Part shown: positions 4,964 through 33,738 of the stretch, piece after piece
How the letters are laid out: the number at the start of each line of letters is the position of its first letter
How positions within the stretch are numbered: position 1 is the stretch's first letter
DNA from: a virus
IMG/VR virus record: IMGVR_UViG_3300013014_000024
Location: 33,695-97,694 of that record
Strand: one strand, 5' to 3'
DNA: 64,000 nt
Notes under the pieces: model-generated
Told to the model about the DNA's origin: nothing
Database searches by the model: none
The model's input: the letters and a program-made list of their open reading frames with translations, nothing else
Made by a program: the position numbers and the translations under genes

Positions 4964-5209
4964 TCAATAAATCCCCGCCCTTTTTTCCCAATCTTCCATG
5001 AATAGAGTTAATGCTTTATTTGGTCTACAAGTGTGAGCGTGCTCATGTAGTAATGATTGAAATGTTTCTTTCAGTTGAGTAAACTCTCCATCGGAACTTT
5101 TTTTCCCAATATTGTAGGATTCTTCAAGTGCAACTAAAATTGAGCCTTCATCCAAGAAAGAATTATGGGTCTGATGTTTTTTTAATAATTTTTTAAAATC
5201 TGGTTTCAT
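4964..5209 (-). CDS. hypothetical protein
   Basis: ATG overlaps the stop of the RNA ligase. Confidence 0.55.
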   Translation of the reverse strand: MKPDFKKLLKKHQTHNSFLDEGSILVALEESYNIGKKSSDGEFTQLKETFQSLLHEHAHTCRPNKALTLFMEDWEKRAGIY

Positions 5210-6330
5210 TCTGTTTCTTTTTGCCAAAACGGTTTAGAGTATTTAGGTTTTATTAACTTAAAAATTAATTCATTTACTTTATCTCTCTTACCATCCCACA
5301 TTGCAAACATAATTGCATGTAGGTTAGGGTCAACAACTTTTTTAAGATGTTCCGCAAATTCTTTTTTAGAAGGCTCAGGGTCAACGTCACTATACTTACC
5401 ATATCTAAAATAATCGTGGGCTTTCCCACAATATTCAGAGACACTAAAATGACCATATTTCAAAGCACTTACCTGTTCTTTAACCCATTTATCAAATTCA
5501 TCAGGAACTTTTTCTACCAATTCCATAACGTCTTTACCATCCTTCAAATATTCCCAAATATCATAGGTAGAAAATCCAGTTAATATTCTATGTAATCTAA
5601 CATATTCTTCTCCCTTGATTTTCATTCTAACACCATTTTCAAATTTGATAACAAATCCTTCCGCGTTTTGCAAAATTTTGGACTTTAATTCGGAATAATC
5701 CCGAACTCCATCATATTTTTTAACAACTTTGAATCCCAAGTTATTATATAGGTTTCTGAATCTTATTCCTTCAAGATGAATATTATCATCGTGTATTCTT
5801 AATTCATAACCATCTTTATTATCCACAACAGCAAGAAGTATCAAATCTTCAAAATCATATTCGCAAACTATTCTATTTTCAGGATAGATTATTTCAAATA
5901 GATAGGTAAATCCTTTGATTAATTTTTCATATCTATATTTTTTAAGTATTTCCATACCTCTGATTGCTTGTTTAGAAGTGAAAGAACCCTTGGTTGCCAA
6001 TATCCATTCGTTATTGTAATTAAACAATATACCCAAAGACCCATCCATCTTTTCAAATACTTCAAAAGGTTCATTTGGTATTTTGGACTCAACCCATTTA
6101 TTACCAACCAACTCCTCATAGTTAAAGAACTTATCAAAAGCCTTTGCCACAACGTTTCCCTCATTATCTAAAACGAGTCCACGAGTTTTCAAAGTTATAT
6201 CATCCCACTTTCCTTCGTATTGAGTTTTACGAGAGTAGTTGTAGATTGATATAGGTAAAGATGGGTGGTCATTTCTTTCCACCCATCCATCTTTGACATA
6301 TTGGTTCAATATTTCTAAATCAAATTTCAT
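5206..6330 (-). CDS. rnlA: RNA ligase, T4 Rnl1 family
   Basis: RGLV, KFFN, motif I EKMDGSLG, FEIIYP, EGFV, KIKGEEY. Confidence 0.9.
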   Translation of the reverse strand: MKFDLEILNQYVKDGWVERNDHPSLPISIYNYSRKTQYEGKWDDITLKTRGLVLDNEGNVVAKAFDKFFNYEELVGNKWVESKIPNEPFEVFEKMDGSLGILFNYNNEWILATKGSFTSKQAIRGMEILKKYRYEKLIKGFTYLFEIIYPENRIVCEYDFEDLILLAVVDNKDGYELRIHDDNIHLEGIRFRNLYNNLGFKVVKKYDGVRDYSELKSKILQNAEGFVIKFENGVRMKIKGEEYVRLHRILTGFSTYDIWEYLKDGKDVMELVEKVPDEFDKWVKEQVSALKYGHFSVSEYCGKAHDYFRYGKYSDVDPEPSKKEFAEHLKKVVDPNLHAIMFAMWDGKRDKVNELIFKLIKPKYSKPFWQKETE

Positions 6331-6536
6331 TATCTTTTTATCTCCATATTGGTGTTAGAAATTGGCAACCTAAATACAGGAAAATTCTTGTCTTCAAATT
6401 CATCTTTTTGCATTACCTCATAAAACCCTTCTTCTCGCACTTTAACGGTAGGAACGTCATTGTAATTCTTTATCAATCCGTCTTCAAAGGTAATCTCTAC
6501 GGTCTTTGTCGTTGTGTTAAATACTAATTTTTGCAT
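6330..6536 (-). CDS. hypothetical protein
   Basis: Small ORF in operon. Confidence 0.55.
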   Translation of the reverse strand: MQKLVFNTTTKTVEITFEDGLIKNYNDVPTVKVREEGFYEVMQKDEFEDKNFPVFRLPISNTNMEIKR

Positions 6537-6547
6537 ATGTGTTTGTT

Positions 6548-6778
6548 TTAAATTTCTTCATATCTTATTGTTGCATCACCGGCAACGTGGTCAAAACTAA
6601 CCCATCGCGTAAATCCTTCATGTTTGGGTAATAAATGATGTTCTCTGTGTCCGCAAGAAACACATTCTCTAACAGGAACCCTTACACAATCTCTCCCTAA
6701 AGGATGATTTGTAACTTTATGTTTTTCTCTTTTATATTTCCAAAAATGTAATCCAAAAAAACAAAAAAATCTCTTCAT
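6548..6778 (-). CDS. small Cys/His protein (CFFGLHFW...CVSCG)
   Basis: DUF1660-like N-terminus plus CxxC. Confidence 0.55.
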   Translation of the reverse strand: MKRFFCFFGLHFWKYKREKHKVTNHPLGRDCVRVPVRECVSCGHREHHLLPKHEGFTRWVSFDHVAGDATIRYEEI

Positions 6779-6780
6779 TG

Positions 6781-7227
6781 TTAAAGTTTAATTTCAAAAC
6801 GATTTTTCATTATTTCCAATTTGTCTTCAGGAACCCCATGAACATTCTTACCACCGTGACGATTTTCAACAATCAAAGATACAACTTTATAGTTATACTT
6901 TTCAGCCAATTTATAATAATCTTCCATTTCCCATTCTTGGGTAAAGGTATTTGAAACCGCAATTTCAGGGTAATACTGTTCATTGAGTTGGTGGTCTCCC
7001 ATCATAGTCTCAACTTTATTCTTACACCAAGCATGAGCATCTTTAATCTTTGAGGGGTCAAAATTATAATTCCCTTCTTTATCATAAAAATATTGGTCTG
7101 CCTCCACAACAGCATACTCGTTCCAAATGTGTATTGCAAAAGATGTTTTACCTGACCCTAGTTACGGAACCCCTCTAATCAGGAATAAAATTCCTGTAGA
7201 GGGGTTCTTAATTTTTTCATTATTCAT
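6781..7227 (-). CDS. P-loop polynucleotide kinase-like (AAA_33) protein with in-frame TAA at codon 22 (candidate recoded gene or pseudogene)
   Basis: ATG 7227 reads MNNEKIKNPSTGILFLIRGVP-TAA-CTA-GSGKTSFA...EADQYF...AHAWC...VSNTF...NVHGVP. Removing 6 nt restores Walker A GVPGSGKT. Confidence 0.8.
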
Positions 7228-7296
7228 AATATTTATTGTTAGAGGTTTTCCTGACTATGAATACAAAAATAGTAATTAATTTATTAAAATCAAAAT

Positions 7297-8187
7297 ATGT
7301 TTTATAGAAATTGTCCTTCTTGTAATAATGTTATAGAATATAAATCAAAATATACTCACGAAAAAGGTTTAAAATCAAACACTGAATGTAAAAAATGTTA
7401 CCTTAAAAAAATAATTACACCAGAAAGAAGAAAAAAGATGTCTGAAAATATGAAAGGGGATAAAAATCCAATGTTTGGTAAAACTGGTGAAAAAAATCCT
7501 TTTTTTGGTAAAAATCATACCGAAGAAACTAAGAAAAAAATGAATAGTAATAAGGATTATTCGGTATACAAAACCGATGAATTCAGAAATAAAATGTCAA
7601 AAACAACCAAAGGAAATAAAAATCCTATGTACGGAAAAAACTTCTATCAAGTATGGGTTGAAAACTTTGGAGAAACAATTGCGAACGAAAAATTAGCTCA
7701 ATTCAAACTAAAGGTATCAACTAATTCTTCAGGAAATAGAAATCCTATGTATGGAAAAATAACTCCACAAGGTTCTGGAAATGGATGGAGTGGATGGTAT
7801 AATGGATGGTTTTTTAGAAGTATTAAAGAATTAACTTATATGATAAAAATCATAGAGAGATTTAACTTATCCTGGAAAACCGCCGAAAGTTCGGAGTATT
7901 CAATTAACTATATGTTTAACAATAGTTCAAGAACTTACCATCCTGACTTTGTCATTAACAATAAATATTTGGTTGAAATTAAACCCAAAAGACTATGGAA
8001 TAGTCTTTTGGTTAATCAAAAAACAATCGCGGCAAAATTGTTTTGTGAAAAAAATGGGTTGATATACAAACTTGTAGATATTACTTCAATAGATGAAAAA
8101 TTGATAATTGAATTATATAATTCAAAAAAAATAAAATTTACAGAACGATATGAAAAAAAATTTCGTGAACGTTTTTTAACAAAATAA
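7297..8187 (+). mobile_element. free-standing homing endonuclease (Zn ribbon, NUMOD3-like repeats, TnsA-like PD-(D/E)xK domain)
   Basis: Repeated KNPMFGK/KNPMYGK and HTEETKKKM. YHPDF...VEIKP catalytic motif. Inserted against the direction of the surrounding operon. Confidence 0.8.
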
Positions 8188-8195
8188 TATTCCGC

Positions 8196-8441
8196 TCATT
8201 TGTAATAATTTTTTATTTTTCTAAAATTAATCTCAACTAACTTTCCGTCGGGTCTTATTGACCCATAGTGCAAACTACTATCTTCTTCAACCCTAACTAC
8301 AACATCGTAGGTTAGGACTTGATTAAATCCATTTTTGTTAGACTCGATTGTATCTATAACAACATATTCATTTTTTTCTAAAACTGCCTCAGAGCAACTT
8401 GTAAAAAAGATAAGACCTAAAATACATAAAAATTTATTCAT
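8196..8441 (-). CDS. putative lipoprotein
   Basis: Signal peptide ending FTSC. Confidence 0.55.
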   Translation of the reverse strand: MNKFLCILGLIFFTSCSEAVLEKNEYVVIDTIESNKNGFNQVLTYDVVVRVEEDSSLHYGSIRPDGKLVEINFRKIKNYYK

Positions 8442-8452
8442 AATTACTTTTT

Positions 8453-8647
8453 TTAATATCCTTTTTGAATAGTTAATCCGTATGTAAAGTTAAGAAAAGA
8501 AATTTGAATTACAAAAGCCGGAGAGGTAACTCCTGTCTCAAGAAAATAATCTTTAAAATACAACATTGAAACACAGGGTATTATCCAATACATTCCTTTA
8601 ATTTTTCTAATTCTATTACTTGCTATAAACCATTTTTTCATCACCAA
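8453..8647 (-). CDS. hypothetical membrane protein
   Basis: Small hydrophobic ORF in operon. Confidence 0.5.
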   Translation of the reverse strand: MVMKKWFIASNRIRKIKGMYWIIPCVSMLYFKDYFLETGVTSPAFVIQISFLNFTYGLTIQKGY

Positions 8648-8832
8648 GTTTCTATTTCTGTTAAATCTAATTTTTTATTCGGAACCAAACTACATTCTAC
8701 TGTAACCACATCACCGATACCTGTTGGTCTAAAACAATACGTGTAAGAACCATATTCACCATAAATGGTTTTAATGGCTTCATTCCATTCTTTCAATTTA
8801 GACATTTGAGTTTCAGATAATTCAAATTTCAT
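8641..8832 (-). CDS. hypothetical protein
   Basis: YTYCFRPTGIG pattern seen in small phage proteins. Confidence 0.6.
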   Translation of the reverse strand: MKFELSETQMSKLKEWNEAIKTIYGEYGSYTYCFRPTGIGDVVTVECSLVPNKKLDLTEIETW

Positions 8833-8850
8833 CTTAATGTTTTTTTATGT

Positions 8851-9045
8851 TTATAACTCAATATAATATTCAATATCAGATATTATTGTTTTATCTATTG
8901 GATATATTGCAACTTCTCTAAAATTAAGACTTTCTTTTTGATAAATCAAAAAATGGTAACATCCATTACTAATTTTAAATTCTTCCGCAATAACTTCTTT
9001 AATTGGCCATTGAGACCCCATTACTTCAATATGGTATTTATTCAT
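8851..9045 (-). CDS. hypothetical protein
   Basis: Small ORF in operon. Confidence 0.5.
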   Translation of the reverse strand: MNKYHIEVMGSQWPIKEVIAEEFKISNGCYHFLIYQKESLNFREVAIYPIDKTIISDIEYYIEL

Positions 9046-9418: not shown

Positions 9419-10087
9419 TTATTTTGAGTTTAACAATCTTTCAACATGGTGGTCTTCTGGCATTTCAGACAATTTTTCTCTATGTCTCAACAAAGGAACA
9501 ACTTCTCTATACACATTATAAGGTCTGAACTCAGGATGACCATCCATACCCACGTCCATTCTTTGTCCCCTACCAAACCTCATATGAGTTGGCAAATGGC
9601 AGTGTCCGTGTAAGTGCATTACACCCTTATTAAGACCATCCCAAGAACTTATGGGATAATGCATCAAACGGAACTTAAATTGTCCCATTTCAAGTGTATT
9701 GTAGTGTGAAACGGATTTAAACAAACCCTGGCTACCTTGCCTATTGTTTTCTATGTGGTGGTCGTGGTTCCCCAATACCAAATGTATGTTCTTACATACC
9801 AATCTATCCCAAAATTCACGTATTTGCTCAAATCCACCGAAAGACCAGTCACCAAGATGTATCAATATATCATCTTGTTCAACAACTTCATTTATGTTAT
9901 TGACTATGGCGGCATTCATTTTTTCTACAGTAGCAAAATCACGAGTTTGAGATATGGGAACTTGTCCGTCTTGAGTTCTCCAAGCGGTTGTACCACGACA
10001 TATGTTATTATGGGAAAAGTGAGTATCGGAGGTTATCCATACATTAACTTCTGGTACATTTTTTGTATCTACAGGTATCTTTATCAT
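9419..10087 (-). CDS. calcineurin-like metallophosphoesterase
   Basis: SDTHFSH, HLGD, GNHD, HGHCH motifs. Confidence 0.9.
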   Translation of the reverse strand: MIKIPVDTKNVPEVNVWITSDTHFSHNNICRGTTAWRTQDGQVPISQTRDFATVEKMNAAIVNNINEVVEQDDILIHLGDWSFGGFEQIREFWDRLVCKNIHLVLGNHDHHIENNRQGSQGLFKSVSHYNTLEMGQFKFRLMHYPISSWDGLNKGVMHLHGHCHLPTHMRFGRGQRMDVGMDGHPEFRPYNVYREVVPLLRHREKLSEMPEDHHVERLLNSK

Positions 10088-22523: not shown

Positions 22524-22609
22524 ACGTGTGTGGCCGAGAGGTTTAGGCAACAGTCTCCAAAACTGTACGGACGAAAGTCCTAACGTGGGTTCGAATCCTA
22601 CCATACGTG
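22524..22609 (+). tRNA. tRNA with anticodon CCA (Trp) and long variable arm
   Basis: ACAGT-CTCCAAA-ACTGT. Variable arm GGAC-GAAA-GTCC. G73. Confidence 0.85.
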
Positions 22610-22809
22610 CAAAAGGTTGATTGGGGAATGGGATATCGCAACCTGATGATGGAGGTTGGAGATTCTCGGAGTTGAAATCATCAAGTAATGCCAATCGTAA
22701 AAGGAGTTGTCCACTCGACCATCTTCTCCTTTCCTAACTTTTGGAAGTATTGTTTATTTTGAGTTATCCGCGGTTTGAGTATAGATACTCAACAATTAGT
22801 TCTTTGAAT

Positions 22810-22894
22810 TGCTTCGTTGCCGTAGTGGCCGAACGGTCCAGACTGTTAATCTGGTGTGTAAAAACCATCGTAGGTTCGAATCCTACCGAAGCAG
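22810..22894 (+). tRNA. tRNA with anticodon GTT (Asn) and 15-nt variable region
   Basis: CCAGA-CTGTTAA-TCTGG. TGCTTCG/CGAAGCA. G73. Confidence 0.85.
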
Positions 22895-22979
22895 CTTTAA
22901 ATACGGAGATAAAAAAATAAAACTATACAAAGTATAGTTTTAGGGTTCAACTTACATATTTATATGTAAAGACTTAGTT

Positions 22980-33189: not shown

Positions 33190-33738
33190 ATGAACAAAAG
33201 GAAAATAAAACATAAAATGGGTAAATGTACCTGTAAAAATTGTGGTATTGAGTTTGAAAAACCATTGACGGAAATTAGAAGAAATGAAAAATTAAATAGA
33301 CCTAATTTTTGTAGTAGAACTTGTGTCGGAAAAAATAATGCTAAAAATTTTGGTGACAGAAAAAATAATTATGACATTTCACAACATTCAAGTAACCGCT
33401 TAGACGGATATACTAAGTTTAGATACCATTATAGAAATATGAAAAAAAGGTATCATGATATTGACGTAACTATTGATGATTTAAATGAACAATGGAAAAA
33501 ACAAGATGGTATTTGTGAATTTAGTGGAGTTAAATTAAATTTATCATCTTACACTAAAATAAATAAAAATCCAATATATACGGCATCTTTAGATAGAATT
33601 GATAATTCTAAAGGATATATTAAAGGAAATATTAGGTGGGTGTCAAGAGCAATGAATTGGATGAAAAATACTATGTCGGATGAAATGGTTGAGGAACTAC
33701 TCCAAATTATTGTTGAATATAAAAAAACCCCCAATTAA
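33190..33738 (+). mobile_element. free-standing HNH-like endonuclease
   Basis: CKNC...FCSRTC and SLDRIDNSKGYIKGNIRWV...N.MK. Confidence 0.75.

Follow-up and report, generated by a model that had tools for sequence, protein, structure and literature searches.

How might a phage obtain a P-loop kinase from a gene in which a stop codon separates two codons of the P-loop itself? This question is raised by a locus in a 64,000-nucleotide (nt) stretch of DNA (hereafter the window) that comprises positions 33,695–97,694 of the 97.7-kb IMG/VR virus record IMGVR_UViG_3300013014_000024. On the minus strand of the window, a gene for a predicted polynucleotide kinase-like protein of the AAA_33 family contains six bases, TAA CTA, between the Pro and Gly codons of its Walker A motif, directly after a predicted RNA hairpin and close to a divergently oriented homing-endonuclease gene. 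A preliminary description of the locus had interpreted this arrangement as a ribosomal bypass site, and the comparative analyses reported here support that interpretation. We think that the gap is probably crossed by a programmed +6 hop of peptidyl-tRNAPro, encoded within a homing-endonuclease cassette that is not homologous to that of T4 gene 60/MobA.

Skipping six nucleotides restores the P-loop of the window kinase

The kinase gene begins with an ATG at 7227–7225 (minus strand) that opens a 21-codon frame, MNNEKIKNPSTGILFLIRGVP, ending in GGG GTT CCG, at which point a TAA codon (7164–7162) intervenes. Beyond this stop codon lie CTA (7161–7159), GGG (7158–7156), and TCA GGT AAA ACA, in a frame that stays open for 125 codons. 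The start at 7227, the order CCG TAA CTA GGG, the position of the hairpin, and the intactness of the remainder of the gene had all been given in the preliminary description, and each was found again when the locus was re-examined. The parts of the interrupted gene are as follows.

7165–7227, minus strand: first part of the kinase open reading frame (ORF), with ATG, an 11-residue N-terminal extension, the beta-1 strand GILFLIRG, and the putative take-off codon CCG (7167–7165)
7159–7164, minus strand: coding gap of 6 nt, TAA CTA; the stop codon adjoins the take-off codon, and the putative landing triplet CUA adjoins the Gly codon GGG
6781–7158, minus strand: second part of the kinase ORF, from GSGKT to the stop codon at 6783–6781 (125 codons); AAA_33 / polynucleotide-kinase-like
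7167–7207, minus strand: predicted RNA hairpin whose lower stem (11 bp) is GC-rich and whose upper stem (7 bp) closes on a loop of 3 nt; the first C of CCG is the final paired base

Deleting 7159–7164 restores the P-loop GVPGSGKT, as had been proposed, and intact homologs, which begin MSGILFLVRGLPGSGK or MSGILFLVRGLPGSGKT, read G-L-P-G-S-G-K-T/S at this place. A protein search with the window kinase returned 7,369 relatives, the closest of which are 137 amino acids (aa) long and up to 98% identical; the second part of the window gene is 98% identical to intact proteins of this length. Compared with its closest intact homologs, the window allele has 11 additional N-terminal residues, several substitutions in the P-loop region, and the 6 additional bases between the Pro and Gly codons. 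The P-loop-coding DNA of an intact allele contains AGAGGNYTNCCNGGNTCAGGTAAR.

The assignment to a kinase family rests on both sequence and predicted structure. The second part alone matches Pfam AAA_33 with an E-value of 3.5e-5 (24.6 bits against a cut-off of 27), and PF13671 is present in the intact homologs; a search of the PDB by sequence gave no match. In a predicted model of an intact homolog (predicted local distance difference test (pLDDT) 80.5), beta-1 comprises residues 3–10 and the P-loop residues 11–15, so that the first part of the window gene would encode a core strand of the fold. The top structural matches of this model are T4 Pnk (1ly1; E 2.7e-5) and the kinase domain of C. thermocellum Pnkp, and its Pnk-type matches have E-values of about 3e-5 to 2e-4 and a TM score of 0.6. 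The window gene thus has the predicted features of an AAA_33 / polynucleotide 5′-kinase-like protein, with a Walker A motif GxxxxGK[ST] following beta-1, only if the 6 nt are skipped.

The runs that contain the stretch are freshwater and lake metagenomes, and we compared contigs (Logan) of four of them, from four studies, with the window over positions 6850–7450. The contig of one run (X1, possibly the source sample) is identical to the window over the compared region, and a 146-nt contig of another (X4) is identical over 7035–7180. The two remaining contigs derive from diverged strains: that of run X5 (1684 nt, depth 31) covers 6934–7450 with 39 substitutions and no gaps, and that of run X6 (1306 nt, depth 31) covers 6899–7450 with 54 substitutions and no gaps. 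The insert is therefore present, gap-free, in independent samples, as is the same cassette in a second IMG/VR contig, and at the level of contigs we found nothing in favor of a sequencing or assembly artefact, a reading that these comparisons refute and to which we assign a negligible probability. In the X6 strain, which is about 90% identical to the window here, the insert is TAACCA, not TAACTA, and the codon after it is GGT, not GGG, a polymorphism of the putative landing triplet (CCA for CUA) that speaks for a hop.

A co-varying hairpin abuts the putative take-off codon

The preliminary description had held that an 18-bp hairpin at this place was unlikely to have arisen by chance. Consistent with this view, the 111-nt context of the hairpin folds with a minimum free energy of −29.5 kcal/mol (z −4.1), and none of 200 shuffled sequences folds as well. 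When the window was searched with a covariance model (R1), the hairpin was the single strong match (57.4 bits), and no Rfam family matches within positions 6000–9000.

To relate hairpin and insert we used 80 loci that were taken by protein similarity alone, 9 of which are interrupted at exactly the site of the window and 71 of which are intact. In this sample the hairpin is present in 9 of 9 interrupted loci and in 0 of 71 intact ones, bearing out the co-occurrence of insert and hairpin that had been expected. Over 53 nt ending at the first base of the take-off codon, the 9 interrupted loci fold with −23.4 to −24.7 kcal/mol, whereas the mean for the 71 intact loci is −3.3 and their minimum −12.9 kcal/mol; the same folds for all interrupted genes, including those described below, range from −18 to −26 kcal/mol. 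The R1 scores likewise separate the two groups, with 48.9–73.6 bits for interrupted loci and at most 23 bits for intact kinase 5′ ends.

The stem co-varies. On an alignment fitted to the covariance model, 16 sequences have A-U and 15 have C-G at one stem pair, the covariation score of which, 0.273 (0.196 when shuffled), was reached in none of 500 shuffles. A table anchored on the sequences' own folds showed compensatory pairs involving the wobble positions of a Val codon (C-G in 20, A-U in 17) and of an Arg codon (C-G in 19, U-A in 23), the kind of change that the preliminary description had anticipated, with additional compensatory exchanges in the upper stem. We relied on these two alignments because a MAFFT alignment (A1) placed the 5′ arms of two subfamilies one column off; both lean toward structure, and the size of the covariation effects should be taken cautiously. 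The run of C residues in the 5′ arm occurs in differing codon phases (GCA CCC CCC in some genes, ATA ACC CCC CTG in others), and the Gly codon in the 3′ arm is the rare GGG in 3 of 3 unique interrupted 5′ ends as against 2 of 41 unique intact genes of the similarity-chosen sample. These two observations argue for selection on pairing and not on the peptide. The N-terminal extensions are rich in Lys and Asn and have a Pro about 12 residues before the take-off codon; as this Pro is encoded by the phase-shifting C-run of the arm, constraints on RNA and on peptide are inseparable at this point.

Interrupted kinase genes share one layout

Further interrupted genes came from an endonuclease-based search and from nucleotide-pattern scans of viral contigs and of metagenome contigs, in which GGGGT-N-CCN-TRR and a downstream GG....GG.AAR were fixed while the length (3–6 nt after the stop codon) and content of the gap were left free. 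The resulting set from public contigs comprises 47 unique interrupted 5′ ends of AAA_33 kinase genes and one 5-nt variant (locus L090). Of the 47, 35 belong to the same small kinase family as the window gene, 11 to a longer AAA_33 kinase, and 1 to a third AAA_33 type. All 47 have a common layout: a GC-rich hairpin, CCN, a stop codon, 0–3 spacer nt, a triplet, and the P-loop Gly codon in the kinase frame, after which the P-loop reads G-S/A/C-G-K across the interrupted genes. The first part of the gene keeps an in-frame start and the beta-1 pattern x-L-hydrophobic-L-hydrophobic-R-G-V-P in 47 of 47, the latter through synonymous changes (TTA/TTG/CTA, CTG/CTT).

The stop codon directly 3′ of CCN is TAA in 27 of the 47, TGA in 14, and TAG in 6, the scan allowing only TRR there; L090, which was found via its endonuclease, likewise has TGA directly after the take-off codon. 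Gaps are 6 nt long in 37 genes, 7 nt in 4, 8 nt in 1, and 9 nt in 5, and 16 gap types of 6–9 nt with the same layout occur among the relatives, one 9-nt type (TAA TAA CCT) containing a double stop. Additional gap bases always lie between the stop codon and the landing triplet, and the downstream kinase frame always follows the landing triplet across the four lengths. Because the scan left gap length and content free, these rules for landing triplet and frame are observations and not products of the pattern.

The triplet before the Gly codon is CUA in 15 genes, CCA in 13, CCG in 8, CCU in 5, CUU and UUA in 2 each, and UCA and UCG in 1 each; it is thus CCN in 26 of 47 and another YYN in 21. YYN triplets are those expected to pair with an NGG anticodon when G-U pairs are permitted in the first and second positions, and the near-cognate CUA that had been proposed as the landing codon in the window conforms to this family-wide rule. 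Only 1 of the 47 has the same codon at take-off and landing, so a single shared tRNA would have to read several third-position bases; the tRNA that serves both is presumably tRNAPro(UGG).

Could the ribosome instead read through the stop codon (in genes with 6- or 9-nt gaps) or shift by +1 or −1 (in those with 7- or 8-nt gaps), giving a kinase with two or three additional P-loop residues? Some of the genes do have CCU-UGA-C after a G-rich tract, which resembles the +1 frameshift site of prfB (RF2), where a G-rich tract 3 nt upstream of a shift-prone codon is followed by the slow-termination context UGA C, and a +1 shift in the 7-nt types would read VP-EL-GSGKS. Unlike at prfB, however, a +1 shift fails to restore the kinase frame for gaps of 6, 8, and 9 nt, and the G-rich tract pairs with a co-varying C-rich arm. 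With insert lengths of 6, 7, 8, and 9 nt, the whole set can be accounted for neither by readthrough nor by any one frameshift; a separate mechanism would be needed for each gap length, all three stop codons and a double stop occur, and the inserted residues would shift the first Gly out of GxxxxGK[ST]. None of the pattern matches with TGG in the stop position is a kinase, and we saw no kinase in which a sense codon replaces the stop. The 97.7-kb record, itself only about 32% complete, encodes 15 tRNAs, none of which is a suppressor tRNA or a special tRNAPro. Moreover, a Shine-Dalgarno (SD)-like core at −20 to −4 precedes only 3 of the 74 ORFs of at least 150 aa in the record, fewer than the 8.8% found among random 17-mers, suggesting that initiation in the host is probably SD-independent. 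We therefore regard readthrough or frameshifting as improbable. The hop, by comparison, covers every gap length and every stop codon with a single mechanism.

Two further candidates were considered and set aside. An alternative genetic code was rejected since all three stop codons occur at the site and neighboring genes end in them. Tension between SD and anti-SD sequences, as in prfB, is an unlikely driver of any recoding here given the scarcity of SD-like motifs noted above.

The insert might also be removed from the mRNA by excision or editing of 6 nt, for example through cleavage at the base of the hairpin and resealing by a phage RNA ligase. In favor of this idea, the kinase gene lies in an RNA-repair module, its neighbors encoding an Rnl1-type RNA ligase (5206–6330) and a metallophosphoesterase (9419–10087). 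Removal at the RNA level would, however, leave unexplained why a stop codon comes right behind a Pro codon and why the gap closes with a Pro-like triplet, the region has no Rfam match, and we know of no system that excises 5–9 nt; we consider it very improbable. The same neighbors make a role in RNA repair a reasonable prediction for the window kinase, while the suggestion of the preliminary description that the bypass cassette regulates RNA repair is speculation.

In a tree of the kinases, there are deep clades that consist of interrupted genes only, intact genes having been sampled only near the kinase of the window, and the tree needs at least 7–9 gains or losses.

Two groups of loci in this set have peculiarities of their own. 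The longer AAA_33 kinase (L088:2300–3305; also L103, L111, L114, L125, L143, L145, L146, L180, L187, and L194), which bears the hairpin-stop-landing element, has a C-terminal domain with a weak Acb1/2H-like match (E 0.002), and its hairpin is made from codons of S-R-P-S-Q and M-R-G-V. At L090 (1416–2772), the start of the replacement kinase overlaps the 3′ end of the endonuclease ORF, Leu precedes Pro, and the hairpin ends 2 nt earlier.

The element is part of a mobile homing-endonuclease cassette

Upstream of the kinase gene, in divergent orientation, lies the gene that the preliminary description had taken for a free-standing endonuclease gene 70 bp away; the distance is 69 nt from the kinase ATG, and the assignment holds.

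7297–8187, plus strand: free-standing homing-endonuclease gene (296 aa), with N-terminal CxxC...CxxC, three NUMOD3 repeats, and a C-terminal PD-(D/E)XK domain
about 7140–8200, no strand: mobile cassette, consisting of the endonuclease gene, the intergenic region, the replacement 5′ end of the kinase gene (hairpin and gap included), and some 17 nt past the gap

The 296-aa protein matches NUMOD3 with an E-value of 4.7e-21, and residues D217, E227, and K229 are invariant in 25 endonuclease sequences. Its AlphaFold2 (AF2) model (pLDDT 85.6) best matches TnsA (1t0f_A; Z 8.7, root-mean-square deviation 5.0 over 137 residues, in the wider VIA search), followed by Vsr, VRR_NUC, Hjc, and the catalytic domain of I-Bth0305I (Z 4–5.4), whereas Foldseek gave weak matches only (E 0.016 or worse). 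Sequence and model thus place the protein in the PD-(D/E)XK nuclease superfamily. Among 50,697 records of cultured phages there is no full-length relative of the endonuclease, the one partial tblastn match covering 31% of the protein in Synechococcus phage S-SRM01; no isolate with the element was found there, and the kinase relatives are at most 52% identical.

That the cassette is mobile, as had been surmised, is evident from a comparison with a second phage, IMGVR_UViG_3300032227_001790. In 60-nt windows the two sequences share 51–60 (mostly 56–60) of 60 positions over 7139–8218 and 46–55 of 60 (77–92%) in the kinase body, and no alignment is possible beyond 8219. Over about 1.06 kb the two phages are thus 95–100% identical, although their flanks are 60–85% identical or unalignable; such a near-identical cassette in diverged surroundings indicates that the block has moved between diverged phages. 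In other pairs, cassettes with 0 mismatches in 60 nt are found inside kinase bodies that differ at 39–46 codons. The ORF adjoins its target gene and sits in otherwise diverged genomes; the element is a free-standing homing-endonuclease cassette.

An association of insert and endonuclease had likewise been predicted, and it mostly holds: an endonuclease gene lies divergently upstream of 26 of the 39 interrupted genes that could be assessed (in one case as a 34-aa remnant only) and of 0 of 49 unique intact genes. The other 13 of the 39 have no endonuclease gene, yet they have kept the leader, start codon, hairpin, gap, and open kinase frame.

Distant relatives of the endonuclease suggest what it may cut. 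Their genes have the same orientation as the target and directly follow a 5′ remnant that ends inside the P-loop codons, the remnants reading MRGIPGSG-LK*, MKELILLRGIPG-IE*, and FGGPGSG-LK* (L088, L090, L091, and L095 are among the loci with remnants). After the endonuclease gene comes a replacement 5′ end, which has the hairpin and gap in L088 and L090; in L091, L093, L094, and L095 the P-loop is recoded (GGPSAGKS, GAPASGKS, SGPGAGKS) and not interrupted, which looks like a different route to self-immunity. Taken together, these loci support, without proving, the notion that P-loop-coding DNA is the target of this endonuclease family and that introducing a gap is one of several means by which a carrier allele becomes immune. 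In L091 (1380–2560), L093, L094, and L095, the endonuclease gene is on the plus strand from about 1490 and is followed by a complete replacement gene with the recoded P-loop.

The mobility of the cassette also provides the ground for the main rival to a hop. According to this explanation the cassette simply kills a dispensable kinase, homing outpaces the loss, and the hairpin and insert serve only DNA-level immunity or the regulation of the endonuclease. T4 Pnk is dispensable in most hosts, the intact downstream frames could be recent acquisitions of a cassette that clearly moves, and one locus, L249, looks like a truncated remnant: from about 560 on its reverse strand, hairpin and TAACTA mark a cassette 5′ end, after which come only 18 kinase codons and then an unrelated SDR-type gene, making L249 either a decayed remnant or a chimeric contig. 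Left unexplained would be why the cassette brings its own leader and start codon and keeps an open beta-1 frame in 47 of 47 variants, why the insert evolves only within stop + 0–3 nt + YYN, and why the kinase frame tracks the landing triplet through four lengths. The 13 copies without an endonuclease, which keep all other parts, and the co-variation of the hairpin, at the level of RNA or DNA, are also at odds with mere disruption, and we consider it unlikely.

A model for the proposed hop

A hop by the ribosome would proceed as follows. A mobile homing-endonuclease cassette has replaced the 5′ end of a polynucleotide-kinase-like gene, bringing TAA CTA between the Walker A Pro and Gly codons; the insert would split the P-loop-coding sequence that is the putative target of the endonuclease family, so that the carrier allele would be immune to cutting. 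During translation, the ribosome would come to wait with peptidyl-tRNAPro on CCG in its P site while UAA occupies the A site; Pro followed by a stop codon is a slow and poor termination context in Escherichia coli. While the ribosome waits at CCN, the upper stem would lie outside it together with the 5′ arm of the lower one, and the 3′ arm, the 10–11 nt just upstream of the P site, would still be inside. The anticodon would then release CCG, and the GC-rich lower stem would zip at the mRNA exit, pulling the mRNA forward. As each base pair formed in the lower stem should need about 1 nt of forward movement, a lower stem of 9–11 bp would fit a slide of 6–9 nt. The tRNA would re-pair with CUA, near-cognate for an NGG anticodon via G-U at the middle position, and decoding would restart at GGG to give ...LIRGVP-GSGKT..., an intact P-loop kinase. 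The hop, its efficiency, the hairpin as its driver, and the endonuclease target are in each case what the DNA sequence suggests.

Several observations weigh against a hop or weaken the evidence for it. Features inside the GGGGT-N-CCN-TRR pattern were partly selected for by the two scans, and the variants share ancestry, so that the counts are not independent events. The landing triplet of the window itself, CUA, is only near-cognate, and L090 is off the landing rule, with a 5-nt gap TGACA (CCG TGACA GGA) that puts ACA before the Gly codon. The 9-nt gap of L205 contains an in-frame ATG, and L249 is cut off after its 18 kinase codons, in a contig with 2.2-fold coverage. Pairwise ratios of nonsynonymous to synonymous substitution rates are low, 0.13–0.19 for interrupted and 0.11–0.12 for intact genes, and this does not prove that selection has acted since the insertion: cassettes with 0 mismatches are found in diverged kinase bodies, so that much of the divergence predates the acquisition, making these ratios uninformative on the point. 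With these observations weighed, a programmed hop remains our favored explanation.

We also lean, if only slightly, toward a broader proposal. A portable recipe, consisting of a Pro codon followed by a stop codon, a nearby Pro-like triplet, and a GC-rich hairpin ending at the take-off codon, may yield hops of 5–9 nt at a useful rate in an SD-independent host, and PD-(D/E)XK endonucleases may use this recipe as a self-immunity insert in the P-loops of different kinase genes, which would make it a second, independently evolved phage bypassing system.

Relation to known bypassing systems

Natural programmed bypassing is known from very few systems, namely T4 gene 60 with its homologs among topoisomerase genes and the byps of yeast mitochondria. 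The 50-nt bypass of T4 gene 60 is carried by a MobA homing-endonuclease element (Bonocora et al. 2011, as cited in Manning & Atkins, bioRxiv 10.1101/2022.08.31.505936), and members of the gene 60 family that have lost the endonuclease likewise retain the bypass (bioRxiv 10.1101/2022.08.31.505936). The kinase element shares with gene 60 a take-off codon with a stop codon immediately behind it, a landing codon that matches or nearly matches the take-off codon and immediately precedes the codon at which decoding would resume, a 5′ stem-loop, a gap that lies within a homing-endonuclease cassette and interrupts a conserved coding site, and an endonuclease that is often lost while the gap is retained. 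Pairing of the exiting mRNA has been proposed as a forward driver for gene 60 (bioRxiv 10.1101/2024.12.09.627546); the hairpin of the kinase element abuts the take-off codon, whereas the 5′ stem-loop of gene 60 lies 9 nt upstream of it (10.1101/2024.12.09.627546).

The two elements differ in most other respects. There is no sequence homology between them, the gap is 5–9 nt instead of 50, the tRNA would be that for Pro instead of Gly, the target is a kinase P-loop instead of a topoisomerase, and the endonuclease combines NUMOD3 with PD-(D/E)XK instead of being MobA. In the kinase element we found no SD-like landing aid and no 3′ barrier, nor did we find an A-site take-off stem-loop, for which no systematic search was made. 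The nascent chain is 20–23 residues long in most members, the host is apparently SD-independent, and the target is not split into two proteins. As judged from its DNA, the kinase element would work like gene 60 but is no member of the gene 60/MobA element.

Short hops over a stop codon have a precedent in test constructs in E. coli, where peptidyl-tRNA hops at a low level (Weiss et al. 1987; O'Connor et al. 1989, as summarized in a citing paper). The proposed event resembles these hops in being a +6 movement that crosses a stop codon and ends on a synonymous or near-cognate codon, nine nucleotides specifying one amino acid, and it differs from them in that they are unprogrammed, inefficient, and made on synthetic sequences, whereas the kinase genes combine a conserved hairpin with a strict layout in natural genes of dozens of phages. 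In the literature that we searched, short stop-hops appear only as inefficient events in E. coli test constructs. The byps of Magnusiomyces capitatus mitochondria are similar in being many short mobile inserts in essential coding sequence that are bypassed between matched take-off and landing codons; they differ in being 27–55 nt long and GC-cluster-like, in belonging to mitochondrial translation, and in having no homing-endonuclease link. A full-text literature search gave no report of a hop in a kinase P-loop, and the authors of the 2022 survey state that no similar bypassing has been reported in other phages (bioRxiv 10.1101/2022.08.31.505936).

If the hop is real, the kinase element would reveal which gene 60 signals are indispensable, as here nothing more seems to be needed than a stop codon behind the take-off codon, a landing triplet that matches, and a hairpin on the exit side. 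It would also offer a natural mutant series (gaps of 5–9 nt, three stop codons, eight landing triplets, and many stem variants) for the model in which an exit hairpin drives bypassing, it would extend bypassing to hosts without SD pairing, and it would mean that homing endonucleases have combined disruption of the target site with translational repair more than once. Such kinases are under-annotated in viral metagenomes because gene callers split or truncate interrupted genes.

Other features of the locus and of the record

The region between the two divergent genes travels with the cassette.

7228–7296, no strand: divergent intergenic region, cassette-borne, with an A-rich leader AACAATAAATATT before the ATG and a TAnnTTTG-like motif

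The leader is kept in relatives (...CCTCTAAYAATAAATAT ATG). A promoter role of the region is suggested by its sequence; TAnnTTTG is not enriched upstream of ORFs in the record. The intergenic region is conserved, and many relatives (e.g. L040:1080–1160) have an inverted repeat, GTATTC-N8-GAATAC, just 5′ of the leader, which could be an operator or promoter element common to the two divergent genes.

Directly 3′ of the kinase gene, at 6548–6778 on the minus strand, is a 76-aa ORF with CxxC and HxxHH-like motifs; its position is conserved in related loci (e.g. L004:3380–3616), and it has no Pfam match. The host is possibly a member of the Bacteroidota. Of the 14 tRNA genes of the window, 11 are clustered at 21.1–25.0 kb, and among the tRNAs predicted by ARAGORN, a tRNA-Trp of 87 nt (22524–22610) and a tRNA-Asn of 86 nt (22810–22895) are unusually long for their types.

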